DNA of 64,000 bases, from NCBI GenBank assembly GCA_964354935.1, contig CAYHBT010000001.1, positions 10,751-74,750 on the forward strand. The letters run 5' to 3'. Origin of the DNA: an uncultured Candidatus Saccharibacteria bacterium (GTDB taxonomy: Bacteria > Patescibacteriota > Minisyncoccia > Phycocordibacterales > UBA9973). Position 1 is the first letter of the stretch; every line of letters begins with the position of its first letter. Under the pieces are notes generated by a model that did no database searches, was not told where the DNA came from, and saw only the letters and a program-made list of their open reading frames with translations. Made by a program: the position numbers and the translations under genes. Positions 1,909-51,440 of this stretch are shown piece after piece.

Positions 1909-4077
1909 ATGCGATCAAACACATTTGACAGGCTTTCGTTTTTGTCACTCTTTTTAGTAATAATATTATTACCTTTTTTCTTTTTACCTTTTACCAATAT
2001 TCCGGTGGGGATTTCTAAGGGAGCGCTTCTGGTGATTGGGCTTGCTTTTTCTGTTATTTTTTGGGGTTTTGCCAGATTTTTTGACGGAAAAATCATTCTT
2101 CCAAAATCAATGTTTCTTGCGGCGGGTGGGGGGATAGTTTTAGTATTTTTCCTTTCGGCTCTTTTAGTGAAAGCTTCGCAAGTGTCTTTCTTTGGCACAA
2201 TGCTTGATGTCGGCACTTTTTGGTTTATGTTTGCTGGTTTTCTTTTGATGCTTATGTGTTCTATTTCTTTCCGTCACCCCAAGAGCGCTAGGCTGGTTTT
2301 ATTTGGAGCGATACTTTCTGCCGCGATTGTTTTAATTTTTCAAGCTATTCGTTTGTTGGCACCTCAAATTCTATCGCTGGGAGTGTTGGCTTCAAAAACC
2401 GATAATTTAATCGGTTCTTGGAACGAGCTGGGTATTTTTGCCGGATTTTCCGCAATAATGTCGCTTCTTGTTGTTGAATTTTTTTCAACTACAAGAATGG
2501 AAAAATTAATACTTCAATCTCTGATTGTGCTTTCAATGATATTGATTGCTGCTGTTAATTTTGCATTTGTGTGGGGTTTGCTCGGACTTTCGGCTTTGAT
2601 AATCTTCGTCTATAAAATTTCAATTTCTTCTAGTCGTAAGTTTGCGCAAGAATCAAAAGTGGAAGAAAATGGAGAGAAACATATTCATATATCCGGTGAA
2701 GGTGAAGAAAAAAATTATTTTCCAGTCTTTTCTTTTGCGATAGTGATGATTTCCCTGTTATTTTTTATGTCCGGACAGTCCATAGGATCAATATTGCCAA
2801 ATCGTCTCGGAATACAAAACAATGAAGTCGGTCCCAGTTTTCAAGCTACGGTTGAAGTTGCCAAATCAGTTCTTAAAGACAATCTTATTTTCGGTATAGG
2901 TCCAAATAAATTTGGAGAAGCTTGGACTATGTACAAGCCGAAGGCGGTAAATAGCACCGCTTTCTGGAATGTTTCTTTTGATACGGGTTCTGGATTGCTG
3001 CCAACCTTGGTCGCTACTACTGGTTATGCCAGTATCCTTGCTTGGCTCGTATTTTTTGTCTTTTTTATGATAAGTGGTGTCAAGTCTATTTTTTCGAGCA
3101 TCAAACATGGAATAAATTGGGAGACGATGGCTTTTTTCCTTCTGTCTCTATATTTATTTATTTCTTCTTTCTTTTATTCGACCGGTTCGGTAATATTTTT
3201 ACTCGCTTTAGCTTTCGCCGGAGTGTTTGCTGGTTTATCTGCCACAAACAACAAAGAGGGAGAAATTTCCATAGCGTTTTTAAGTGACCATAGGAAAAGT
3301 TTCTTTTCGATGATGTTTCTGGTTGTTTTGGTGATTCTTTCAGTGGCTGTCTCTTTTAAATATGTGGAACGTTTTGTTTCTGTTTCGTATTTTAGAAAAG
3401 CGCTTGCAGCAGAAACTGTTCCGGAAGCTATTACCTCAATTAGTAAAGCTCTTTCTCTATATACTAATGATTTATATTTGCGAGCGTATTCAGATGTTTA
3501 TCTTTTGAAATTAAATTCTTTAGTTTCTAAAGGAGATTCTTTGTCGGAAGCGGAAAAGACAGATTTACAGACAAGTTTAGATCAAGCTGTTTTGGGTGAT
3601 CAGCAGGCAATTGTCTATAATCCTAAAAATTATTTAAATTTTAGAGCTCTCGGTTCTCTGTATCAAAATCTAGCTTCATACGGAGTGAAAGATGCTTACG
3701 CTCGAGCAGTCGAAGCTTATCAAGCAGCTTCTACTTTAAATCCAAACAACCCCGGACTTAAGCTTTCTATGGCCATCTCATCTATTGCGGATAAAAAAAT
3801 TGATTCAGCGAAAGAGTATACTAATGCTGCTCTGGTTTTAAAACCAGATTATATAGATGCGTGGATTGTTCTCGCAGAAATAGCTAAAAGCGAAGGAGAT
3901 ACAAAAAATGCGCTTGAGTATGCGGAGACAGCTCTATATTTGGCTCCCACAAATGAAGATTTGAAAAAATATGTTAATTCTTTTAAAAACTCCAACTCTT
4001 CTTCGGTGACAGCTCCTTCGAATATTACTCCTCCTGATACTTCAAAGACCCCCGACGGTCCTATTAAGAAAAAATAA
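1909..4077 (+). CDS. polytopic membrane protein, O-antigen ligase (Wzy_C)-like with C-terminal TPR repeats
   Basis: At least 10 predicted TM helices, followed by TPR-like repeats (AYSDVYLLKL, ALGSLYQNLASYG, AYQAASTLNP, ALYLAPTNEDL). Confidence 0.6.
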   Translation: MRSNTFDRLSFLSLFLVIILLPFFFLPFTNIPVGISKGALLVIGLAFSVIFWGFARFFDGKIILPKSMFLAAGGGIVLVFFLSALLVKASQVSFFGTMLDVGTFWFMFAGFLLMLMCSISFRHPKSARLVLFGAILSAAIVLIFQAIRLLAPQILSLGVLASKTDNLIGSWNELGIFAGFSAIMSLLVVEFFSTTRMEKLILQSLIVLSMILIAAVNFAFVWGLLGLSALIIFVYKISISSSRKFAQESKVEENGEKHIHISGEGEEKNYFPVFSFAIVMISLLFFMSGQSIGSILPNRLGIQNNEVGPSFQATVEVAKSVLKDNLIFGIGPNKFGEAWTMYKPKAVNSTAFWNVSFDTGSGLLPTLVATTGYASILAWLVFFVFFMISGVKSIFSSIKHGINWETMAFFLLSLYLFISSFFYSTGSVIFLLALAFAGVFAGLSATNNKEGEISIAFLSDHRKSFFSMMFLVVLVILSVAVSFKYVERFVSVSYFRKALAAETVPEAITSISKALSLYTNDLYLRAYSDVYLLKLNSLVSKGDSLSEAEKTDLQTSLDQAVLGDQQAIVYNPKNYLNFRALGSLYQNLASYGVKDAYARAVEAYQAASTLNPNNPGLKLSMAISSIADKKIDSAKEYTNAALVLKPDYIDAWIVLAEIAKSEGDTKNALEYAETALYLAPTNEDLKKYVNSFKNSNSSSVTAPSNITPPDTSKTPDGPIKKK

Positions 4078-4082
4078 TAAAA

Positions 4083-5762
4083 ATGGATAGGATTCTCCGG
4101 ATCTTTGGCAAAGAGTACGCAAACATAAATCAAGCCGCGTTGCTTTTGGGTTCTTTTGCTTTTCTTTCACAAGTGCTGGCTTTATTCCGTGATCGCTCCA
4201 TTGCCCATTTTATAGGTCCCTCACCCTTGCTCGACGCTTATTATGCGGCTTTTCGCATACCGGATCTTATTTTTATCTGCATAGCGTCGCTAGCTTCTAT
4301 CACAGTGCTTATTCCATTTATCACAGCGAAGATGAATGCGGGTGTAGTGACGGACCAAGCACGCAAGTATCTCAACGATGTTTTTACTGTTTTTTTGATA
4401 ATGATAATATTTGTCTCTCTTGTGGCTTTTTTTGCTATACCGTATTTGACATCTTTTATCGCACCAGGATTTACGCCAGATATGCAAGCAAAGGTTATTG
4501 AGCTTTCACGCATAATGCTCCTTTCTCCGATATTGCTAGGACTTTCTAATTTGTTTGGAAGTATCACACAACTTTTTTCTAAATTTTTTATTTACTCTTT
4601 GAGTCCAATTTTTTATAATATTGGAATTATTATTGGTGTTATTTTTTTGTATCCTTTGTTTGGAATTTATGGATTAGCAACTGGAGTTGCTTTCGGAGCC
4701 TTGATGCATTTTGGTATACAAGCATTTGCATCTAAAAGTTGTGGCTTTACGCTCCGATTTTCTTTTTCGATTAATTTTTCCGATATCAAAGCTTTGGCTC
4801 TCATATCTCTTCCAAGGACATTGGGTCTCGCGTTCAACAACATAGCCCTGATTTCTATTATCGCTCTCGCATCATATTTGGAAGAAGGTTCTATCTCAAT
4901 TTTTAATCTTTCTTTCAACCTTCAATCTGTGCCACTTAATATCATCGGCATCTCTTATGCGGTTGCGGCTTTCCCAACTTTAGCCAAATCAATTTCTTTG
5001 GGAAAACTGGAAGAATTCAGAAAACATCTTAAATCTGCCGCGCGGGCAATAATTTTCTGGTCTTTGCCAGTAACTTTTCTTTTTATAGTGCTTCGCGCAC
5101 AGATTGTGCGTGTGATTCTCGGTTCTGGAAGTTTTTCTTGGGATAACACTCGTCTAGTGGCGGCGTCGCTCGCAATTTTTTCTATTTCTGTCATTGCGCA
5201 GGGAATGATTGCTCTACTGTCTAGAGCTTATTATGCAAGGGGAGATACCAAGCGTCCACTTACAGTAAATTTATTTTGTTCTATTTTAATCATAATTTTA
5301 TCTTTTGTCTTTACATATCTATTTGAAAATCTACTTTTGTTTAGATATTTCATCGAATCTCTGCTTAAGGTGTCGGATATTCCGGGTACCGCAGTCCTTA
5401 TGCTACCGCTCGCTTATTCTGTCGGTACTATTTTTAATGCTATCCTGCATTGGTTTTTTGTCAGGCGAGATTTTATGGGAGGGGAATCTTTTATCACCAA
5501 GACATTTTTCCAAAGTTTGGGCGCCTCGTTCTTTCTGGGGTTAGTGGCTTATCTATCCTTAAATATTATTTCTCCCATCTTTGGCACCACCACATTTTTG
5601 GGGGTGTTTCTGCAGGGGTTTATTTCCGGAATTTTTGGAATAATAGCGGCTGTTTTTGTGCTTTATCTTTTAAATAATGAGGAACTCAAAGATATAATTA
5701 AAACTCTCAAAACTAAATTTTGGAATACTAAAATCATCGCCTCCTCTCAGGAGGGGCTTTAA
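4083..5762 (+). CDS. murJ: lipid II flippase MurJ (MviN)
   Basis: N-terminal LSQVLALFRDRSIAHFIGPSPLLDAYYAAFRIPDLIF signature of the MurJ family. 14 TM helices. Confidence 0.85.
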   Translation: MDRILRIFGKEYANINQAALLLGSFAFLSQVLALFRDRSIAHFIGPSPLLDAYYAAFRIPDLIFICIASLASITVLIPFITAKMNAGVVTDQARKYLNDVFTVFLIMIIFVSLVAFFAIPYLTSFIAPGFTPDMQAKVIELSRIMLLSPILLGLSNLFGSITQLFSKFFIYSLSPIFYNIGIIIGVIFLYPLFGIYGLATGVAFGALMHFGIQAFASKSCGFTLRFSFSINFSDIKALALISLPRTLGLAFNNIALISIIALASYLEEGSISIFNLSFNLQSVPLNIIGISYAVAAFPTLAKSISLGKLEEFRKHLKSAARAIIFWSLPVTFLFIVLRAQIVRVILGSGSFSWDNTRLVAASLAIFSISVIAQGMIALLSRAYYARGDTKRPLTVNLFCSILIIILSFVFTYLFENLLLFRYFIESLLKVSDIPGTAVLMLPLAYSVGTIFNAILHWFFVRRDFMGGESFITKTFFQSLGASFFLGLVAYLSLNIISPIFGTTTFLGVFLQGFISGIFGIIAAVFVLYLLNNEELKDIIKTLKTKFWNTKIIASSQEGL

Positions 5763-7596: not shown

Positions 7597-9429
7597 ATGA
7601 AATTAGAAAATATAAGAAATTTTTCAATCATCGCGCACATAGACCACGGCAAAAGCACCTTGGCTGATAGAATGTTGGAAATCACGCATACAGTCGAAGC
7701 GCGAAAAATGCGTGATCAAGTGCTAGATTCTATGGAGCTTGAACGCGAACGCGGGATTACTATAAAAATGCAACCCGTAAGAATGGAATACGCAGTAGGT
7801 GCCGAAAAATACATTTTAAATCTCATCGATACCCCAGGGCATGTGGATTTCTCTTATGAAGTTTCTCGCGCTCTAAAGGCTGTAGAGGGTTCTATTTTAC
7901 TGGTTGATTCCACACAGGGAGTGCAGGCGCAGACACTCACCACGCTCGCTATGGCTCGCGGAGACAGTCTTGAGGGAGAGAGGAAGATTATTCCGGTGAT
8001 TTCCAAAATAGATTCGCCACTGGCTAGAATATCTGAAGTAAAAGAAGAGGTTGTAAAACTTTTAGGTTGCGATGAAAGCGAGATACTTTTAGTGTCGGGG
8101 CGTACAGGAGAAGGAGTCGAGAATCTTTTACAGGAAATAATAAAACGCGTTCCAGCGCCACCCTCCTCCCCTCATGAAGGGGAGGAGGGTGGGGTGGTGG
8201 GGGTGTTGCGCGCTTTGATTTTTGATTTCAAATATTCCAATCACCGAGGCGTGATAGTTTTTGTGCGAGTTCTTGATGGTAATGTTAAAAAAGGCGACAA
8301 TCTGCTATTTGCAGTTTCTGGTGAAAAATTTACCGCGCTTGAAGTGGGAACTTTCTCGCCAGAAGAAACCGCCCGTGAATCTCTTTCTTCGGGGGAAATC
8401 GGTTATATTGTCACTGGCATAAAAAAACCCGGTATCGCTTCGGTTGGAGACACAATTACTAAATTATCCAATCCTTTGCCTGCGCTTTCTGGATATATGC
8501 AGCCTATGCCGGTGGTCTGGGCGAGTGTCTTTCCGGAAGACGCCGATGATTTTGCTTTGCTTAAACTTTCTTTGGGCAAGCTTAAACTTTCTGATTCATC
8601 TTTCTCTTTTGAAGAAGAATCCTCGGGATCTTTGGGTAGAGGATTTCGTTGCGGATTTCTCGGAATGCTCCACTTGGAAATTATCACCGAAAGGCTTAAG
8701 CGAGAGTTTAATTTAAACTTGGTGATTACGACTCCTTCTATTATCTATGAAGTGGAAAACAATCAAGGGAAAAAAGAAAAAATTTATTCTCCCTATTTTT
8801 TTCCGGACGATGGAAATATAAAAGTCGTATTCGAACCTTGGGTGCACGCTCGCATCATTACACCTTCTCAATATTTGGGCAATATTATGCAAATTTTATT
8901 TGATCACGAAGCCGAAATCGGAGAAACCGAAAATTTCGGGGATAATCGCTCATCTATATCAGTCAGAATGCCTCTGCGTGAATTAATGCGTAATTTTTTC
9001 GATGAATTAAAAAGCACTTCTTCCGGCTATGGATCGATATCATATGAAATGGCGGAAATGCGCGAAGCGGATGTCACTCGGCTCGATATACTGGTGGCAG
9101 ACGAAGTCGTCCCTGCGTTTTCTAAAGTTATTTCCAAAAAAAGAGCTGAAGTTGAGGCGGAAAGTTCTGTTTTGAAATTGGAAAGTTTGCTGCCTCGACA
9201 GATGTTTACTCTCAAAATTCAAGGCAAGGCATTTGGGCGTATTATTTCTTCACGCACACTTTCTGGTATGAAAAAAGATGTTACTGCTCATATGTACGGA
9301 GGCGACATCACTCGTAAAATGAAACTTCGCGAAAAACAAAAGAAAGGTAAAAAGAAAATGAAAGAGCGTGGAAGAGTGAATATTCCGCAAGATGTATTCT
9401 TGAAAATGATGCGCAACGGAGAGAACTAG
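7597..9429 (+). CDS. lepA: elongation factor 4 (LepA)
   Basis: N-terminus IRNFSIIAHIDHGKSTLADR with GTPase motifs. Full LepA domain order. Contains an in-frame 15-bp palindrome encoding PPSSPHEGEEGG. Confidence 0.9.
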   Translation: MKLENIRNFSIIAHIDHGKSTLADRMLEITHTVEARKMRDQVLDSMELERERGITIKMQPVRMEYAVGAEKYILNLIDTPGHVDFSYEVSRALKAVEGSILLVDSTQGVQAQTLTTLAMARGDSLEGERKIIPVISKIDSPLARISEVKEEVVKLLGCDESEILLVSGRTGEGVENLLQEIIKRVPAPPSSPHEGEEGGVVGVLRALIFDFKYSNHRGVIVFVRVLDGNVKKGDNLLFAVSGEKFTALEVGTFSPEETARESLSSGEIGYIVTGIKKPGIASVGDTITKLSNPLPALSGYMQPMPVVWASVFPEDADDFALLKLSLGKLKLSDSSFSFEEESSGSLGRGFRCGFLGMLHLEIITERLKREFNLNLVITTPSIIYEVENNQGKKEKIYSPYFFPDDGNIKVVFEPWVHARIITPSQYLGNIMQILFDHEAEIGETENFGDNRSSISVRMPLRELMRNFFDELKSTSSGYGSISYEMAEMREADVTRLDILVADEVVPAFSKVISKKRAEVEAESSVLKLESLLPRQMFTLKIQGKAFGRIISSRTLSGMKKDVTAHMYGGDITRKMKLREKQKKGKKKMKERGRVNIPQDVFLKMMRNGEN

Positions 9430-9430
9430 T

Positions 9431-9472
9431 AGTGAGAGCTTTAGGCTCTAGGGAGAGTCTAAAGCTCTCACT
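9431..9472 (+). terminator. perfect 14-bp inverted repeat hairpin after lepA (AGTGAGAGCTTTAG...CTAAAGCTCTCACT). Belongs to the cagagcctaaRgc palindrome family.
   Basis: Inverted repeat read directly from the sequence. Downstream of it is an AT-rich stretch. Confidence 0.5.
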
Positions 9473-17024: not shown

Positions 17025-17095
17025 TGCGGAATGGGGTAATCGAAACCCCGCCTAATCCTTGGGAAGGACTCATTCTACCACTAAACTAATTCCGC
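17025..17095 (-). tRNA. tRNA-Gly(CCC)
   Basis: Reverse complement reads gcggaattagtttagtggtagaatgagtccttcccaaggattaggcggggtttcgattaccccattccgca. Anticodon loop ttCCCaa. No encoded CCA. Confidence 0.75.
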
Positions 17096-17108: not shown

Positions 17109-17133
17109 TTGTCCAACACTCGGTGTTGGACAA
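17109..17133. repeat. REP palindrome ttgtccaacactcggtgttggacaa, with a tandem half-copy just upstream
   Basis: Perfect palindrome. Flanks RAYT-2. Confidence 0.8.
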
Positions 17134-17799
17134 TCAATTTATCCAATCTAATTCTTCCTTTAACAGTTTTGCCGAGCTTGTTTTCACAAATTCATCATAT
17201 TCGTTTTTATTTTTAAACTGTCCGTTGATTATAGCAGTAATCAATAATTCTTCAAATCTATTTTTATTTACACAATCTTGATAGCTTGACCAAGGGTAAA
17301 TATTTTCTTTATTCAGCCACTCTTTTAATTCTCTTGGATTTCTGTGGATATACGCAGACAGGTATAGAAGCTGATTATTATCTTTTACATGTACTGCTTT
17401 GTATGGTCCCTGAAATAGGTGTCCTGATTTGTGGTATTTTGTATTGTAATATTTTGTATAACTATTCAAAACTCTTTGCATATATCTAGCGATACCATTT
17501 TCTTCAACTTCCTTAACGATCAAGTGAAAATGGTTTGACATTAAACAAAAAGAGGTGAGTTCCACGAATCTACCTTTTACGATTTCTTTTTTGGTTTTTA
17601 TATCAATGTCAAACACTGAGTGTTGGACAAATGATTTTATCGAACGACCAATCTGTTGAAAAACAGTAGGGGATTGAAAGTATAAAATTAAAAACAAAAA
17701 TCTTATTCTATCCATGTTGTCGTGAAAGATTAATTGTTTACTCATTCCGCGATTAAAGATATGATAATACTCTCCCGGTGCTATTTTTATATTTCTCAT
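17134..17799 (-). CDS. REP-associated tyrosine transposase (RAYT) copy 2
   Basis: GEYYHIFNRG, MSNHFHLIV and YIHRNPRE motifs. Confidence 0.8.
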   Translation of the reverse strand: MRNIKIAPGEYYHIFNRGMSKQLIFHDNMDRIRFLFLILYFQSPTVFQQIGRSIKSFVQHSVFDIDIKTKKEIVKGRFVELTSFCLMSNHFHLIVKEVEENGIARYMQRVLNSYTKYYNTKYHKSGHLFQGPYKAVHVKDNNQLLYLSAYIHRNPRELKEWLNKENIYPWSSYQDCVNKNRFEELLITAIINGQFKNKNEYDEFVKTSSAKLLKEELDWIN

Positions 17800-17826: not shown

Positions 17827-17851
17827 CTGTCCAACACTCGGTGTCGGACAG
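17827..17851. repeat. REP palindrome ctgtccaacactcggtgtcggacag (other flank of RAYT-2)
   Basis: Near-perfect palindrome. Same family as the one at 17109. Confidence 0.75.
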
Positions 17852-34392: not shown

Positions 34393-35361
34393 CTATTTCG
34401 TATTCAACGCAAGATAAATATCTTCGAGCGCGCGGACGGCATCGCCGGCGGCGATGTTGTTTTGATGATAGAGGACATCGGTGCAATCTCCGGCCGCCCA
34501 GATGCCTTGTGTCTGCGTCTTTTGCGTTTTAGGGTCTATTATTACTCTGCCTATTTCGTCGAGCGGAACGATGTCCTTAGCAAAACCGGTGTTTGGGATT
34601 TGCCCTATCTCCACAAAAATACCGGCGACAAGAAGCTCCACGATTTCTCCGGTCGTTTTATTTTTGTAGATAATGCCTTCCACGAATTTATCGCCTTTCA
34701 CTTCCAAAATGTCGACATTTTTAACCGCTTTCATTTTTGGATTTTTCAAAACTTTTTCTACCGTAATTTCATCGGCGCGGAAAGACTCGCTTCGATGTAA
34801 GAGGGTCACAGACTTGCAGTAAGCGAGGAGCTGGGAAGCGCTTTCAAATCCGGCGTTGCCTCCACCGATCACGACGACGTCTTGCCCTTCAAATAGAGGT
34901 CCGTCACAAGAAGCGCAATAGGTGAGGCCTTTATGTTCCAGTCTGTCCGCATTTTTCGCTTCCAACTTTCTGCGTCCGCTACCTGTCGCTATTAAAATAG
35001 TTTTTGTCTCAAATTCTTGACCGGATTCCGTCTTAACTAAGAAAACAGAGCCTAAAGCTCTGTTGAGTAGAGCTTTAGGCTCTGGAGGCACCATCTTTAC
35101 TGAAATTACTTTTTCACCCTCTTTCACTTCTAATGTTTGTCCGGCTCCGGCGTTTGCAAGCACATGTGTTTTTAAATTTTCCGCGAGTTCATTGCCGGAG
35201 AGGGAAGTCGTCCCGATCCAGTTGTATATTTTTTCAGACACGACAGACTGCCCGCCCCATTCGGCAGTGACGAAAAGGGTCTGTAGTCTTTTGCGAGAAG
35301 CATAGACTGCTGCCGCCGCTCCAGCCGGCCCGCCTCCGATGATTGTTAAATCGTAAATCAT
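34393..35361 (-). CDS. trxB: thioredoxin reductase
   Basis: IIGGGPAGAAAA, CASCDGPLF redox-active disulfide, and a second NAD(P)-binding GGGNAG motif. Contains an in-frame palindrome encoding PEPKALLNRALGS. Confidence 0.9.
   Translation of the reverse strand: MIYDLTIIGGGPAGAAAAVYASRKRLQTLFVTAEWGGQSVVSEKIYNWIGTTSLSGNELAENLKTHVLANAGAGQTLEVKEGEKVISVKMVPPEPKALLNRALGSVFLVKTESGQEFETKTILIATGSGRRKLEAKNADRLEHKGLTYCASCDGPLFEGQDVVVIGGGNAGFESASQLLAYCKSVTLLHRSESFRADEITVEKVLKNPKMKAVKNVDILEVKGDKFVEGIIYKNKTTGEIVELLVAGIFVEIGQIPNTGFAKDIVPLDEIGRVIIDPKTQKTQTQGIWAAGDCTDVLYHQNNIAAGDAVRALEDIYLALNTK
35045..35084. repeat. perfect 16-bp palindrome CAGAGCCTAAAGCTCT..AGAGCTTTAGGCTCTG, in-frame inside trxB
   Basis: Same family as the hairpins at 9431..9472 and 45716..45757. 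Confidence 0.8.
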
Positions 35362-41504: not shown

Positions 41505-41721
41505 GAAACAAACTTGCCTAAGTCGGACTTCGGCAGTCTGTATAAATGAAAAACTCCGGAATCAAAGATTCTCGGAGCATCTTGGTGGGCGCTTTTTGCA
41601 CCCGATTTTGGAGCACTACCTCCCTCTCACTTAGACCCGCGTAATTGCTACTGTCTTTGTGAGAGGGAGGCCGATCAATATACGCCAGAGACATTATCTC
41701 ACAAAATATAATTTAAGTAAA

Positions 41722-41754
41722 TAAAAAAACCCGAGGGTACCATGTGGTCCTCGG
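41722..41754 (-). terminator. intrinsic-terminator-like hairpin cccgagg..cctcggg. The T-tract is on the minus strand, so it may be bidirectional.
   Basis: A-run on the plus strand before the stem. Confidence 0.4.
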
Positions 41755-41928
41755 GCTCAACCGGATGGCAGATTTATTTGCCGAACTGGTTTCGATCTTG
41801 CCCACGAGCTCGGGAGAGGGTTGCGGGTCGGAGGTGGGGAAATCCCGCAACCACCTTTTTCCCGATGGGTCTGCTCGTGGGCAAAATCTATAATACTTAA
41901 AGTTTTTAATTTGTCAAATTTATGACTA

Positions 41929-41965
41929 TTTTGAACATATGTAAAAGATAGTAAGATAAAAATTA
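41929..41965 (-). promoter_or_regulatory. conserved about 30-nt palindromic motif (cttacTATCTTTTACATATGTTCAAaatagtcataa on the minus strand), copy 3, about 250 nt upstream of mraZ
   Basis: Same motif as at 55882..55919 and 56541..56575. Core ACATATGT palindrome. Confidence 0.5.
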
Positions 41966-42208
41966 TTTATAAATAAAAACGCTCCTGAGGTGTTAGCCTA
42001 GGAGCGAAATTGGTGGCGCATCGCGCCGATTTAGTTTGGAAGAATTACCCCCTGCTAGCTCTTGTGTCACACTCGCGGTGCGAATTAACAAGAAACCAAC
42101 AGGGGGGGTCAACCAAACCGCCATATTCCTATGGCGAGAAAAGTATAAAACTTAAAGACACCAAAGTCACTAAAGTTATCCACAGGGTAGCTTTGTATTT
42201 CGCTTGTT

Positions 42209-44013: not shown

Positions 44014-45715
44014 TCTCATTTGGCGATCTAAAATTATTTTATTTTGCTTTATAATTTTTAGTTTGGTTTTGATATCCAAACTTTTTTTGGTGCAGGTGGT
44101 GCGTGGTAGCGATTATTCCGAATTGGCGGATCGTCAGTATTCCACTCCTTCTCCAAATATCTATGAACGCGGAACTATTTTTTTTCAAAGTAAGGACGGA
44201 CAACTCATTTCGGCTGCCACCCAGACTACCGGATTCAAAATTGCCATCAATCCAAGCAAAATTTCTGATGTGGAAAGTGTTTTTCAGAGACTTTCTAAAA
44301 TAATAAAATTAGACCAAGTCGATTTCATTTCTAAAGCTGGCAAAAAAAATGATCCATACGAAGAGATTGCCTTTCATCTTTCCAAGGAAGAGGCGGACGC
44401 GGTATCCAACTTGAAAATTTCTGGTCTGAGTATTTTTAAGGAAAAATGGCGTTTTTACCCTGGTGGATCTTTGGCTTCTCATACGCTCGGTTTGGTGGGG
44501 TATAAAGATGCCGAGCTCGGAGGACGCTACGGTCTCGAGAGATTTTACAACGACGAGCTTCTGCGCACCAACGACAATCTGTATGTAAATTTTTTTGCTG
44601 AAGTTTTTTCCGATATAAATCGCACCCTATTCAGCGGAGGAATCAAAGAAGGTGATATCGTGACGACCATTGAGCCGACTGTTCAAAATTTTTTAGAGAA
44701 AAAATTAGAAGAAGTGAAAGAAAAATATCAGGTGGATTCGATTGGCGGGATCATTATGAATCCGATTGATGGTTCGATTTATGCTATGGGCGTGAAGCCG
44801 GATTTTAATCCAAACGATTTTTCTCAAGTCAAAAAGACTTCTACCTTTTCTAACCCTTTAGTGGAGAATGTTTTAGAATTCGGCTCCGTCGTAAAACCAC
44901 TGGTGATGGCTTCCGCGCTTGATGCCGGCGTCGTCACTCCCGCTACTACCTATAACGACAAGGGATCAGTGATAGTTGAAAAAAAAGAAATTTTTAATTT
45001 TGATAAAAAAGGCAGAGGTCCGGAGACGACAATGCAGGAAGTACTCAATCAATCTCTCAATACCGGAATGGTTTTCGTGGAACAAAAACTCGGCAAAGAA
45101 AAATTTAAAGATTACTTGCTTTCATATGGCATTAAAGAAAAAACTGGAATTGATTTACCAAACGAAACTAGGGGGTTGGTAGCCAATTTAAATAGTCCGC
45201 GTGAAATAGAATATGCAAACGCTGCTTTTGGTCAAGGTATAGCTTTGACGCCTATGGAGATGATTCGAGCGCTTGCTTCACTTTCAAATGGAGGAAATTT
45301 GGTTGTGCCTCATATTGCCAAAGAAATACTCTATGAAAGCGGTGGTTCAAAAAAAATCACTTATCCTGTGACTCGCGCAAAAATAAGCAAAGAAACATCC
45401 GAGGTGATAACCGGAATGTTGGTGGAGGTGATGGATAAAGCCATTAAAAGCGGTGCGGGAAAATTAGAGCATTTTAATGTGGCAGTAAAAACCGGCACAG
45501 CGCAGGTTGCAGACAACACCACGGGGGGATACTATGAAGATAGACATACTCATTCATTTGTGGGATATTTCCCAGCTTATGATCCGAAATTTATTGTTTT
45601 TCTGTATGCAGTAAATCCAAAGGGGGTGCCGTATGCCGCGACGACTTGGTCTGATCCGTTTTTAGATATCACCAAGTTTTTATTGAATTATTATGAAATT
45701 TCACCGGACAGATAA
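44003..45715 (+). CDS. ftsI: peptidoglycan D,D-transpeptidase FtsI (class B PBP)
   Basis: SVVKP (SxxK), SLN and KTGTA motifs. N-terminal TM anchor. Confidence 0.85.
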   Translation: MASSLIWRSKIILFCFIIFSLVLISKLFLVQVVRGSDYSELADRQYSTPSPNIYERGTIFFQSKDGQLISAATQTTGFKIAINPSKISDVESVFQRLSKIIKLDQVDFISKAGKKNDPYEEIAFHLSKEEADAVSNLKISGLSIFKEKWRFYPGGSLASHTLGLVGYKDAELGGRYGLERFYNDELLRTNDNLYVNFFAEVFSDINRTLFSGGIKEGDIVTTIEPTVQNFLEKKLEEVKEKYQVDSIGGIIMNPIDGSIYAMGVKPDFNPNDFSQVKKTSTFSNPLVENVLEFGSVVKPLVMASALDAGVVTPATTYNDKGSVIVEKKEIFNFDKKGRGPETTMQEVLNQSLNTGMVFVEQKLGKEKFKDYLLSYGIKEKTGIDLPNETRGLVANLNSPREIEYANAAFGQGIALTPMEMIRALASLSNGGNLVVPHIAKEILYESGGSKKITYPVTRAKISKETSEVITGMLVEVMDKAIKSGAGKLEHFNVAVKTGTAQVADNTTGGYYEDRHTHSFVGYFPAYDPKFIVFLYAVNPKGVPYAATTWSDPFLDITKFLLNYYEISPDR

Positions 45716-45757
45716 ACAGAGCCTAAGGCACTGGCTAGCCAGTGCCTTAGGCTCTGT
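45716..45757 (+). terminator. perfect 19-bp palindrome ACAGAGCCTAAGGCACTGG..CCAGTGCCTTAGGCTCTGT after ftsI
   Basis: Same family as the palindromes at 9431 and 35045. Confidence 0.5.
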
Positions 45758-47352: not shown

Positions 47353-48651
47353 TTAAGCGTTGCTTCCAGCAATGTATCCCGTCGTCCAGCAGAGCTGAAG
47401 AGAAAATCCTCCGCTCGGGCGGTTTATGTGTAATAGGTCTCCAGTGATAAAGAGATTTTCAAAAATTTTCGACCGCATTGTTTTCGTGTCGATTTCCGCC
47501 AAATCTACTCCGCCGTCGGCGACCACCGCTCTATCGAAACCCATAAGTCCGGTGATGGTTGCAGGTAGAGCTTTCAAAAGAGAAATTAAGCGCTTGCGGG
47601 ATTCTCGCGAAAGGCTATGGATTTTGGTTTCGGTATCTAAATCTTTCAAGAGAGACAAAATTGCTTTTGCTGTGCCATTTGGCAAAAGTTCAGGCAAAAT
47701 ATTTTTAAACATTTTATTTTTATTATCATCAAAAAGTTTCAATATTTTTTTCTCTAGCCTAGATTCGTCATTCTCCGGAAAAAGATCGATTTTTGCAGTG
47801 ACGGCTCCTTCTTCGAGCAAGTCGGCGATTTTTCCGGCAGAGTTTAATATGAGCGGACCAGAAAGACCGAAGTGAGTGAATAAAAGTTTACCCGTTTTAG
47901 AAAATTTTTTCTTGCCGTTTACGCAGAAAGTGATTTTCATGTTTGGAACAGAAATGCCGGATAGAGATTTTATCCATTCATCTTCGACTTTTATCGGCAC
48001 AATTGTCGGAGTGGGGGATTTTACAGTATGACCCAAATTTTTGAGCCAATTAAATCCATCTCCTGTCGAGCCTGTTTCGGGGTGTGAATTGCCTCCGGTT
48101 GCCAATATGTATGAATGAGCGGTGTATGTGTCGTTGCCGGATTGGATACCAGTAATTACCCCCACCTTGCCTCCCCCTACATAGGGGGAGGTGCCGAAGG
48201 CGGAGGGGGTATGAGAGGTCAGTATTTTTTTCACCGCCGAATTTGTTTTTATCATTACTCCTAAACTTTTCAAATCTTTTTCCAAAACCTTAAAAACATC
48301 AAAAGCTTTTTCTGTTTTCGGGAAGGCTCTTTTGCGCGCCTGCACAACAAGGGGTAGACCTCTCTTTTCAAAATATTCAAATGTCTCTTTTACTCCAAAC
48401 TGCGCGAAAGAAGAATACAAAAACTGCTCGGCTTCTCCGTAATTTTTTAATAGCGCACGGGTATCATATTCAGCATTGGTGATGTTGCATCTGCCTCCGC
48501 CGGTGATTTTTAGTTTTTTCCCAAGCTCGCGATTTTTCTCTATTAGCAACACTTTTTTGCCGTTTTGCGCGCTACAAGCGGCCGCCATCATTCCAGACGC
48601 TCCTCCGCCGATTACAATTACATCAAAATCATTTTCAGGGTTTTTATGCAT
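47353..48651 (-). CDS. HI0933/BaiN-like FAD-dependent oxidoreductase
   Basis: DVIVIGGGASGMMAA FAD-binding motif and a GGGRCNITN motif. Contains a GC-rich in-frame palindrome at 48170..48191. Confidence 0.75.
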   Translation of the reverse strand: MHKNPENDFDVIVIGGGASGMMAAACSAQNGKKVLLIEKNRELGKKLKITGGGRCNITNAEYDTRALLKNYGEAEQFLYSSFAQFGVKETFEYFEKRGLPLVVQARKRAFPKTEKAFDVFKVLEKDLKSLGVMIKTNSAVKKILTSHTPSAFGTSPYVGGGKVGVITGIQSGNDTYTAHSYILATGGNSHPETGSTGDGFNWLKNLGHTVKSPTPTIVPIKVEDEWIKSLSGISVPNMKITFCVNGKKKFSKTGKLLFTHFGLSGPLILNSAGKIADLLEEGAVTAKIDLFPENDESRLEKKILKLFDDNKNKMFKNILPELLPNGTAKAILSLLKDLDTETKIHSLSRESRKRLISLLKALPATITGLMGFDRAVVADGGVDLAEIDTKTMRSKIFENLFITGDLLHINRPSGGFSLQLCWTTGYIAGSNA

Positions 48652-50301: not shown

Positions 50302-51357
50302 TTATTCCTCTATTTTCGGCTTTTCCACTTCCAGCAAAGTCAGCTCCGGCGAAGTGCCGGCGATACGCAACACATCTTTGTCTATCTTTTTAAGTTCTTT
50401 ACTGGAAGCATTGTAATGATTGGAGACGGTATTGAGCGCGTTGCCTAATTTCACATGATATTCATCATAGGCTTTCAGGTGTTTTCCCAAATCGGAGACT
50501 TTTTTGATTATTTCTTTGGCAGATTCTTCTATTTTGAGAGCTTTGAGTCCTTGCAAGACGGTCTGCAAATACGCGAGGAAAGAAGTCGGACTCGTGATGA
50601 TCACTTTGTATTTTCCTGCGGCCCTTTGGATTAGGTTTTCATTATCTTCTCCCGCGCCGACTTTGTTGGTAATCAAATCATAATAAATGGCTTCGTGAGG
50701 GATAAACATAAAGGCGAAATCGGTCGTGCCTTTTGTCGGCTGGATGTATTTGGAAGTTTCGACAATTCTATTTTTCAAATCATTCTCAAAAATTTTCTCT
50801 AGCTTTTTCTTTTCTGTTTCGTCTCTTTCCTCAACCATCTTGTTATAATTCTCCAGCGAGAATTTTGAGTCTATCGGAATGATTTTGTCTTTCACGAAGA
50901 CTACGGCGTCAACTATGGTTTTGTCTGGGAATTCATACTGCATCTGATAGCTCCCCGGAGGGAGGACATTTTTCAGAACTGTCTCGAGGTAATATTCACC
51001 CAGTATTCCGCGCTGTTTTGGATTCTTCAAAATATTCTCCAAGCTCTGCAATTGATCGGCGAAAGAAATGACTTGCTTGTTTGTCTCGTCGAGTCTCGTG
51101 AGCCTCTCCGTCACATCGCGAATAATTTTATTTGATTCAGAAGAATGAAATTTCAAGCTCTCATTGACCTGCTTGTGGCTTTCGCCAATCTTATTGTCTA
51201 CTGTTCGCGAGAGTTCATTTATCTGTGTTAAAATTAAATTTAAACCGATTTCTTTTTCTTTTGAATCTTCACCATCTTCTTTTCTTTTTCCAAAGACAAA
51301 AAAGCCCACTACCAACCCTCCCAAAATTGCTATAAAAATCCAGACGATGTTTTGCAT
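50302..51357 (-). CDS. rmuC: DNA recombination protein RmuC
   Basis: N-terminal TM helix, a long coiled coil, and a conserved RmuC C-terminal nuclease-like domain (FAFMFIPHEAIYYD). Confidence 0.75.
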   Translation of the reverse strand: MQNIVWIFIAILGGLVVGFFVFGKRKEDGEDSKEKEIGLNLILTQINELSRTVDNKIGESHKQVNESLKFHSSESNKIIRDVTERLTRLDETNKQVISFADQLQSLENILKNPKQRGILGEYYLETVLKNVLPPGSYQMQYEFPDKTIVDAVVFVKDKIIPIDSKFSLENYNKMVEERDETEKKKLEKIFENDLKNRIVETSKYIQPTKGTTDFAFMFIPHEAIYYDLITNKVGAGEDNENLIQRAAGKYKVIITSPTSFLAYLQTVLQGLKALKIEESAKEIIKKVSDLGKHLKAYDEYHVKLGNALNTVSNHYNASSKELKKIDKDVLRIAGTSPELTLLEVEKPKIEE

Positions 51358-51394
51358 TAGTTTATTTTAGCATATTTTAGAATTTGTATTTCAA

Positions 51395-51440
51395 CCCCTC
51401 CTCAATTGAGGAGGGGTACCCTTTAGGGCGGGGTGGTAAT
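51395..51440. repeat. GC-rich palindrome CCCCTCCTCaattgAGGAGGGG with a G-rich tail. Intergenic copy of the lepA/oxidoreductase palindrome family.
   Basis: Read directly from the sequence. Confidence 0.7.

Follow-up and report, generated by a model that had tools for sequence, protein, structure and literature searches.

We investigated a 64 kb stretch of contig CAYHBT010000001.1 (38% G+C; hereafter the window) from an uncultured Candidatus Saccharibacteria bacterium with an AT-rich, gene-dense genome, which our analysis placed with the Nomurabacteria/Paceibacteria type of the candidate phyla radiation (CPR), and three short GC-rich palindromic motifs that it carries, referred to here as copies A, B, and C (Table 1). 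Copy A lies within lepA (EF4), copy B within a gene encoding an HI0933-like, aminoacetone-oxidase-family flavin adenine dinucleotide (FAD) protein (hereafter the flavoprotein), and copy C in the intergenic region upstream of rmuC. A previous interpretation made from the letters of the window (the sequence-only reading) placed three palindromes at these sites and grouped them into one dispersed GC-rich family. Our results confirm the former and support the latter: when all 64 kb were scanned for GC-rich hairpins whose two arms are a pyrimidine and a purine strand, only A, B, and C were recovered, making them the sole such structures in the window.

The three copies share a common layout, comprising a homopyrimidine arm, a loop of 4-5 nucleotides (nt), a complementary homopurine arm, a linker, either short or containing a variable small hairpin, and a tail rich in G. 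This tail is a mirror copy of the purine arm in which A or T faces each A-T pair. For example, the purine arm of copy A (AGGGGAGGA) is mirrored by the tail segment TGGTGGGG, which faces AGGAGGGG (position 8186 back to 8179) with triplets of the T.A-T or G.G-C type at 8 of 8 positions. The same purine-arm segment, AGGAGGGG, is mirrored in copy C by GGGGTGGT (8/8 match), while in copy B the purine arm AGGGGGAGG is mirrored by GGAGGGGGT, with GGTGGGGGT serving as the tail on the opposite strand. The G-rich tails noticed previously can be described more precisely as the third-strand domain that defines the motif. A direct-repeat rule for the tail misses copy C.

A finder for the complete three-part motif, running from the pyrimidine arm through loop, purine arm, and linker to the mirror tail (arms of at least 8 nt with at most one mismatch), returned exactly sites A, B, and C, with B matched on both strands, and relaxed settings gave no further sites in the window. 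No GC-rich matches occurred in 200 first-order Markov simulations based on the dinucleotide frequencies of the window. Single-strand DNA folding z-scores for the sites ranged from -3.0 to -5.8, and copy B was predicted to fold into an outer stem with two hairpins on either strand (about -19.6 to -19.9 kcal/mol), where the folding tool models Watson-Crick pairs only.

Table 1. Coordinates of the motif copies, their host or adjacent genes, and other features discussed in the text (window positions unless a relative is named).
Feature	Position	Strand	Description
lepA (EF4)	7597-9429	+	Host of copy A; Pfam, PDB alignment
Copy A	8158-8207	+	Single-sided triplex-type motif on the lepA sense strand
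Copy A arms	8158-8172; 8178-8192		CCACCCTCCTCCCCT and AGGGGAGGAGGGTGG; perfect 15-bp inverted repeat, loop CATGA at 8173-8177
Copy A tail	up to 8207		GGTGGTGGGGGTG after the purine arm, G-rich; mirror segment TGGTGGGG at 8195-8202
Flavoprotein gene	47353-48651	-	HI0933-like / aminoacetone-oxidase-family FAD protein; host of copy B
Copy B	48158-48210	either	Double-sided motif inside the flavoprotein gene
Copy B left end	48158-48166		ACCCCCACC, complement of a tail
Copy B arms	48170-48178; 48183-48191		Pyrimidine CCTCCCCCT, purine AGGGGGAGG; loop acat at 48179-48182
Copy B second hairpin	48193-48201		GCC-gaa-GGC, small
Copy B tail	48202-48210		GGAGGGGGT
rmuC	50302-51357	-	Start codon 37 nt from copy C, which lies upstream
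Copy C	51394-51440	+	Intergenic single-sided motif
Copy C arms	51394-51403; 51408-51417		Pyrimidine ACCCCTCCTC, purine GAGGAGGGGT; loop aatt at 51404-51407
Copy C second hairpin	51419-51428		CCC-ttta-GGG
Copy C tail	51430-51437		GGGGTGGT, then aat at 51438-51440
tsaD swap site	L003 19126-19190; L004 19180-19240		Near-identical flanks in the two assemblies
Y1 transposase gene	17134-17799	-	IS200/RAYT-like
tRNA	17025-17095		Adjoins the Y1 gene
Y1-gene hairpins	17110-17132; 17828-17850		TGTCCAACAC-tcg-GTGTTGGACA; related copy inside the gene at 17607-17629
Palindrome family	9431-9472; 35046-35084; 45716-45757		AGAGCCTAA(A)GGC / GCTTTAGGCTCT, near-perfect
Long GC-rich hairpin	41619-41670		CCTCCCTCTCAC...GTGAGAGGGAGG; 18-bp arms, 16-nt loop
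Short hairpin	5740-5756		CCTCCTctcAGGAGG, in the last murJ codons

Judged by the design of their sequences, copies A, B, and C are class II intrastrand triplex motifs rich in G/C, the class that includes the BoxC, PIT, and TM_ECO repeats. The arms (15, 9, and 10 bp in A, B, and C, respectively) and first loops (5, 4, and 4 nt) fall within the limits of the class (arms of at least 8 nt, loop of about 3-6 nt), the third domain is an antiparallel mirror built from G.G-C, A.A-T, and T.A-T triplets with at most one mismatch over at least 8 nt, and the motif is multi-copy and dispersed (three sites in 64 kb versus none in the simulations). The second loop is 3 nt on the minus strand of copy B, 8 nt in copy A, and 10 and 12 nt in the plus strand of B and in C, where it holds the small hairpins; reference lengths are 3 nt in TM_ECO and 1-6 nt in the ITxF search. 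The TM_ECO consensus reads CCCTCNCCC N3-6 GGGNGAGGG N3 GGGNGAGGG (Holder et al. 2015, PMC4666352). All three copies depart from it in having other arm sequences, and hence they are not TM_ECO proper. A subfamily found in the lepA, tsaD, and flavoprotein genes of relatives (family 2) does fit this consensus; one lepA copy, ACCCTCTCC-tgtc-AGGAGAGGGG-tta-GGGGTGAGGT, comes close to E. coli type A and shares its TTA second loop. Escherichia coli K-12 carries 23 TM_ECO copies, all intergenic, and the isolated strand was found to form a triplex in vitro by circular dichroism and nuclear magnetic resonance (Holder et al. 2015, PMC4666352). The same study found raised local variability between strains around the copies and no link with mobile elements, and gave the mobilizing enzyme as not known. 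BoxC and PIT are also covered by Hoyne et al. 2000, going by its citation in Holder et al. 2015 (PMC4666352).

When species genomes were scanned with the bare family-1 hairpin, leaving the tail out of the search pattern, at least 120 loci were found in many phyla. Among the matches listed, these included Proteobacteria, Chloroflexota, Planctomycetota, Nitrospirota, Actinomycetota, Bacteroidota, and three CPR lineages, and GGWGGGGG was present within 35 nt of 110 out of 137 hairpins, compared with 10 in a direct-repeat control. The base opposite the A-T pair in the matches listed was A in 41 cases, T in 16, G in 1, and C in none, and the second loop in other phyla measured 3 or 5 nt in 87 of 114 tails, or 17-24 nt with a hairpin in 16. 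The right half of copy B was found exactly in a Dehalococcoidia chromosome. The family-1 hairpin also occurred in 94 IMG/VR viral or prophage contigs (L132-L225; 14 of them below 45% G+C), with a mirror tail on 94 of 125 hairpins.

These results bear on whether the copies are classical MITEs (miniature transposable elements with inverted repeats) or resemble Rickettsia palindromic elements (RPEs), that is, cut-down insertion sequences moved in trans by a DDE-type transposase, to which the tail would be incidental. The double-sided copies do carry 9-nt terminal inverted repeats (ACCCCCWCC / GGWGGGGGT) around the hairpin, and in-frame occurrence has parallels in the RPEs and Coxiella MITEs of the literature. 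However, inverted termini are confined to double-sided copies, and most copies in other phyla are single-sided (both-sided in only 4 of the 137 matches listed) and hence lack them. Moreover, no target-site duplication was seen, the A/T mirror rule of the tail is left unexplained by a simple inverted repeat, and the motif was not found bracketing any transposase gene. The only gene seen in that arrangement is DUF559, and the candidate parent is a DUF559 cassette, described below, rather than a known insertion sequence. We therefore regard the MITE explanation as quite improbable.

Comparison with orthologs confirmed that the two genic copies are lineage-specific additions read in frame in conserved genes, as the sequence-only reading had proposed. 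Copy A falls at the LepA linker that joins the G domain to domain II, where it gives an 18-residue insert and encodes PAPPSSPHEGEEGGVVGV, a peptide unique to this genome among 120 LepA orthologs (82-100% identical). Most of these have an 8-9 residue KETYxGDNN linker at this junction; the sequence-only reading had named a PPPEGDPEGP-type linker as the one replaced, but PPPKGDPEAP is the Thermus form, and close relatives are KETYxGDNN-like. The closest orthologs (89% identical) have an AT-rich linker at the site, and approximately 25 others carry different GC-palindrome peptides there. These include a B-type element that is reversed in orientation and read in two frames (TPTLLPLGKGEVPKAEGV and TPTLPPPTVGGGVRMTEGV) and a BoxC-like subfamily encoding TSPLTPLLTGEGGQRSGEV. 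In the flavoprotein, the peptide encoded by copy B in the minus-strand frame (TPSAFGTSPYVGGGKVGV) occurs only here and in strain L129, which is 98% identical. The closest species-level ortholog (84% identical) has AAAGAAAATAAAAAA at the site, encoded by AAA GAA AAT AAA AAA, and another lineage has the BoxC-like subfamily. Further in-frame copies were found in tsaD of relatives, and at inter-domain linkers of AlaRS and MnmA in one Minisyncoccia genome.

Copies thus occupy spots that tolerate about 10-19 extra Pro/Gly/Ser-rich residues, read through in frame, and across lineages the same protein sites are reused by other subfamilies and in the opposite orientation. As the same element yields different peptides depending on frame and orientation, the conserved unit is the DNA and not the peptide. 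A 73-residue concatenated bait of the encoded peptides gave no matches in a protein search. The arms are purely pyrimidine or purine, so stop codons are impossible within them and can arise only in the loops. Nonetheless, open frames make up 78% of those that cross the motif compared with 79% for random segments (mostly at GC-rich loci), indicating that freedom from stops is an advantage only relative to AT-rich DNA.

The earlier description of the palindromes as peptide insertions needs refining, and we saw no sign that they have been domesticated. Native loop codons are absent at every filled site, which indicates replacement of the native loop rather than clean insertion, and the 15-bp hairpin of copy A reaches into a native Pro codon. 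In structural models, the inserts are low-confidence loops, and they turn over quickly (see below). LepA residues 185-204 were modeled as a coil that links the final G-domain helix to the first domain II strand, with a predicted local distance difference test score (pLDDT) below 50 at residues 192-200. The flavoprotein insert sits at the tip of a beta-hairpin (strands 140-148 and 163-171), with pLDDT below 50 at residues 152-160. LepA also has at least three further hotspots with short lineage-specific inserts (after residues 68, 390-393, and 449 of the window protein), some of which are BoxC-type. Hotspot inserts observed in orthologs include TPSPSPLENGEGGRRPGEV (BoxC-type), NLVVGLPSGSP, PARHALQGDAGG, and EVRPTNPKDLFRPE. 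Those that are not BoxC-type may derive from further palindromic DNA families, and suggest that several such families colonize CPR proteins.

Two comparisons between strains illustrate the pace of change at these sites. Assemblies L003 and L004 encode identical LepA and near-identical tsaD genes, but carry different motif subfamilies in frame at one tsaD site (Table 1). Judged from these sequences, the exchange of one element for another at the same position suggests that such spots change very rapidly. A second hairpin insertion of 27 nt (CCCCGCC-tatttc-GGCGGGG) was observed in the L003 tsaD only, near a recombination breakpoint. In the flavoprotein gene, the window and strain L129 (positions 1248-2546) differ at 10 of 1,299 positions. 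Every one of these lies within copy B and, in L129, runs from A/T to C/G (or from G to C or C to G), which lengthens the C and G runs, although at the 3x coverage of L129 sequencing error is inseparable from local hypermutation.

Such turnover is relevant to the possibility that the motifs are selected DNA or mRNA signals, namely terminators, attenuators, or ribosome pause sites that aid co-translational folding. The hairpins are very stable, and coding copies lie at domain or strand boundaries (the LepA linker, the flavoprotein beta-turn, and the AlaRS and MnmA linkers), as pause sites might. However, they are absent from the closest orthologs, are swapped between near-identical strains, and occur in both orientations relative to the gene. 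A preference for terminator positions, raised previously as a point to check, was also not borne out, as none of the copies is followed by a T-run and copy C is situated upstream of rmuC. An Rfam scan of the window recovered tRNAs only, with no family matching at A, B, or C, and the E. coli copies lack promoter or terminator activity (Holder et al. 2015, PMC4666352). A signaling role is accordingly, in our view, very improbable.

A first indication of how the motifs may spread came from the closest syntenic relative (L130), in which the exoX-rmuC interval holds four motifs of the copy C type. Here, a 442-bp unit (L130 positions 3480-3921) consists of a 115-residue DUF559 gene between inverted 35-bp motifs that match at 33 of 35 positions. 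Copy C is the ortholog of another of these motifs (L130 4469-4519), while the exoX-rmuC interval of the window is without the DUF559 gene and the other small genes of L130. An inverted motif pair without a gene was also observed in L130 (4469-4594). The L130-type protein belongs to the YcjD family, and its closest solved structure is 3HRL, an "endonuclease-like protein". A metagenome scan with this protein identified 322 relatives, of which 80 loci were surveyed. The motif was present within 120 nt of the DUF559 gene at 68 of the 80, and on both sides at 22. At all 19 two-sided loci inspected by hand, the motifs nearest the gene ends were inverted. Distances from the DUF559 start and stop were 9-30 nt, and the open reading frames often terminate within the downstream motif. 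Motif density was 5.85 per kb within 120 nt of the DUF559 gene versus 0.06 per kb more than 300 nt away at the same loci, a difference of about 100-fold. Furthermore, motif subtype follows DUF559 protein clade: cluster 2 is associated with the copy B type, and cluster 3 with that of copy C, whose small second hairpin it shares. Copy C itself matches the left terminal repeat of the L237 DUF559 cassette over approximately 30 nt; for copy B, the match is to the termini of cluster 2.

The arrangement extends to E. coli K-12, in which ycjD is a DUF559 gene. A degenerate BoxC-like copy overlaps the ycjD stop codon (L306, NC_000913.3 1351150-1351830), and TM_ECO no. 9 is located 168 nt downstream. 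We estimate the chance of a TM_ECO so near ycjD at about 0.004, given 23 copies in 4.64 Mb. The 3' end of ycjD is partially duplicated at this locus, and TM_ECO no. 9, which is intact, comes after the duplicate. At the other end of the gene, a perfect hairpin of 16 bp (CACCTCATTCTGACAA...) overlaps the ycjD start codon. Similar DUF559-motif arrangements were found in Deinococcus, Synechocystis, Azospirillum, Sinorhizobium, Photobacterium, Neisseria, Sphingomonas, and a gammaproteobacterial metagenome-assembled genome. On plasmid pAQ6 of Picosynechococcus PCC 7002 (L309, 20688-21778), a DUF559 gene has miniature motifs on both sides (CCCCC-agaat-GGGGG-tca-GGGGG), whose 5-nt arms are below the usual triplex-search thresholds. 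Across complete E. coli genomes, ycjD is present in approximately 62%. In a sample of 60 genomes, motif-like places averaged 4.4 with ycjD versus 2.2 without, a suggestive difference that is confounded by phylogroup and counts near-identical copies only. TM_ECO is reported to be absent from Salmonella. Literature searches returned no paper tying DUF559 or YcjD to BoxC or triplex repeats, and no description of such palindromes in CPR genes. The association with DUF559 goes beyond the published picture, and is a new and testable lead.

An alternative explanation for this association is that the motifs are fragile sites or recombination hotspots where small mobile genes land, DUF559 genes among them, in which case the nuclease would not be spreading the motif. 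Local variability is raised around the E. coli copies (Holder et al. 2015, PMC4666352), as would suit a landing site, and the motifs in L130 bracket several small variable exoX-rmuC genes that are lacking in the window. The association is nonetheless tight and specific (inverted motifs at 9-30 nt, and a density approximately 100-fold above background), and some modules keep their synteny between species rather than having recently landed. The co-variation of motif subtype with DUF559 clade is particularly hard to square with landing sites. We consider this explanation unlikely, albeit the least so of the alternatives assessed.

A further candidate for a mobilizing enzyme is encoded in the window itself. 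The Y1 transposase gene is flanked by hairpins and weakly matches the model for repetitive extragenic palindrome (REP)-associated tyrosine transposases (RAYTs), and could in principle mobilize A, B, and C as REP/REPIN elements. However, the match scored 33 bits against a cut-off of 80, the GTAG/CGTC tags were not seen on A, B, or C, and the gene has its own, different hairpin, TGTCCAACAC-tcg-GTGTTGGACA, which was found only beside and within that gene and nowhere else in the window. A REP-RAYT system operating through the Y1 gene is thus disfavored, and we judge it extremely improbable.

Taken together, we consider it probable that A, B, and C are triplex-type repeats, located in frame at tolerant loops where genic, and cognate to a YcjD-like DUF559 gene. 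A broader proposal, which we offer tentatively and rate somewhat below an even chance, is that YcjD-like DUF559 (Vsr-fold) endonucleases are the enzymes to which BoxC/PIT/triplex repeats in general are cognate. These would constitute a second REP-RAYT-like partnership spanning many phyla, in which gene-dense CPR genomes carry non-autonomous copies forced into coding sequence, repeatedly remodeling the same surface loops of conserved, mostly translation-related proteins (LepA, TsaD, AlaRS, and MnmA), and of others such as the flavoprotein.

Under this proposal, the single strand could fold into a purine-motif triplex, for which the in vitro precedent is limited to E. coli oligonucleotides. The motifs would be cognate to a YcjD-like DUF559 gene bracketed by inverted copies, as REPs bracket RAYT genes, and the DUF559 endonuclease may act on the motif and drive its copying, making it the putative spreader. 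Solo copies and collapsed double-sided copies could represent non-autonomous derivatives or remnants of gene-bearing units, the double-sided form arising, for example, by recombination between two hairpins. Copying, replacement, and erosion would proceed via nuclease-triggered repair, recombination, or template switching, at target sites that already have polypurine loops or older copies. Sites may recur owing to the small number of loops that tolerate an extra 16-19 residues, and existing copies or polypurine codons perhaps attract new ones.

Several observations weigh against this interpretation. As native codons are lost, filled sites offer no clean junction between empty and filled states and no definable insertion point, and no target duplication was seen at filled sites when compared with orthologs. 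Copy A, with its 8-nt second loop, is off the canonical geometry, and binding of the third strand would face competition from its 15-bp hairpin. For the E. coli motif, triplex was undetected in vivo, and the copies showed neither promoter nor terminator activity (Holder et al. 2015, PMC4666352). No DUF559 gene was found in the window by tblastn or profile search, and among approximately 214 loci chosen for carrying the motif, only two had a DUF559 gene, although this is the pattern expected of many solo and few master copies. About 38% of E. coli genomes are without ycjD, yet 1,768 out of 2,049 of these retain at least one detectable copy. Finally, some DUF559-repeat modules occupy syntenic loci in different species, and so are not obviously jumping; others have no flanks in common. 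By analogy, this mobility pattern resembles that of single-copy RAYT genes with REPs more than that of a jumping insertion sequence.

Three points would be new if borne out. Motifs can live in frame in conserved genes, several of which have core translation roles, and the repeated hits at the same loops offer a simple source for many unexplained short insertions in CPR proteins, as well as calling for caution in annotation and phylogeny. The strain-level swap points to fast turnover at motif sites. To our knowledge, the enzyme that mobilizes BoxC/PIT/triplex repeats has not been known since the 1990s. Third, DUF559 would be the first candidate enzyme for BoxC-type repeats, and the association would be the first functional lead for E. 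coli ycjD, directly testable in E. coli.

Other hairpins were also noted in the window (Table 1). Of three members of a near-perfect palindrome family (AGAGCCTAA/GCTTTAGGCTCT), two directly follow stop codons (of lepA at 9429, and of a gene ending at 45715), and these palindromes may be terminators or another repeat family. A long GC-rich hairpin lies in a 500-nt gene-free stretch (41505-42009), and has no Rfam match and no mirror tail. A short hairpin at the end of murJ, also without a third-strand tail, may be a decayed copy or due to chance.

Among known systems, the window motifs are closest to the BoxC/PIT/TM_ECO repeats. Both have three parts, with arms of about 9 nt, a first loop of 3-6 nt, and a mirror G-rich third domain in which A or T stands opposite A-T pairs. 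Both are also dispersed and multi-copy, sometimes in inverted pairs, with strain-local variability. They differ in arm sequence (CCTCCCCCT, CCCCTCCTC, and CCTCCTCCCC in the window), in the second loop, which may hold a variable small hairpin, and in the host, a CPR bacterium in which compact double-sided forms sharing one hairpin are common. In addition, two of the three window copies are genic and translated, whereas E. coli copies are "always intergenic". The repeat class is already known, while its translated, hotspot-bound CPR form is new.

The sequence-only reading likened the motifs to RPEs, reportedly described by Ogata et al. in 2000. The resemblance stands as regards behavior, as both are palindromic repeats that lie in frame in conserved genes and add surface peptides, with DNA as the conserved unit and variable peptides. 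Membership is unsupported. RPEs are approximately 100-150 bp long, restricted to Rickettsia, apparently unrelated in sequence, and lack a triplex-type tail, whereas the window elements (about 35-55 bp) are set apart by size and design, with another architecture. They are selfish-looking repeats read in frame that belong to the BoxC/triplex class, and are not RPEs.

REP/REPIN sequences and their RAYT (Y1) transposases, said to have been characterized by Nunvar in 2010 and by Bertels and Rainey in 2011, offer the nearest parallel for the DUF559 arrangement. In both, one small nuclease gene is bracketed by inverted short palindromes that are otherwise scattered across the genome, repeat subtype co-varies with protein clade, and the module can be vertically inherited at a fixed locus. 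The DUF559 protein, however, has a PD-(D/E)xK, Vsr-like fold rather than that of the HUH Y1 enzymes, and the repeat is three-part rather than a tagged hairpin, with a putative pairing to DUF559. Vsr-like (PD-(D/E)xK) homing endonucleases (Dassa et al. 2009, PMC2677866), such as I-Bth0305I (Taylor et al. 2011, PMC3239194), are likewise small free-standing selfish nucleases of the same broad fold, a comparison made at the level of the fold family. They home into specific genes or introns and are without flanking dispersed repeats, but provide a precedent for a Vsr-fold enzyme that drives the spread of DNA.

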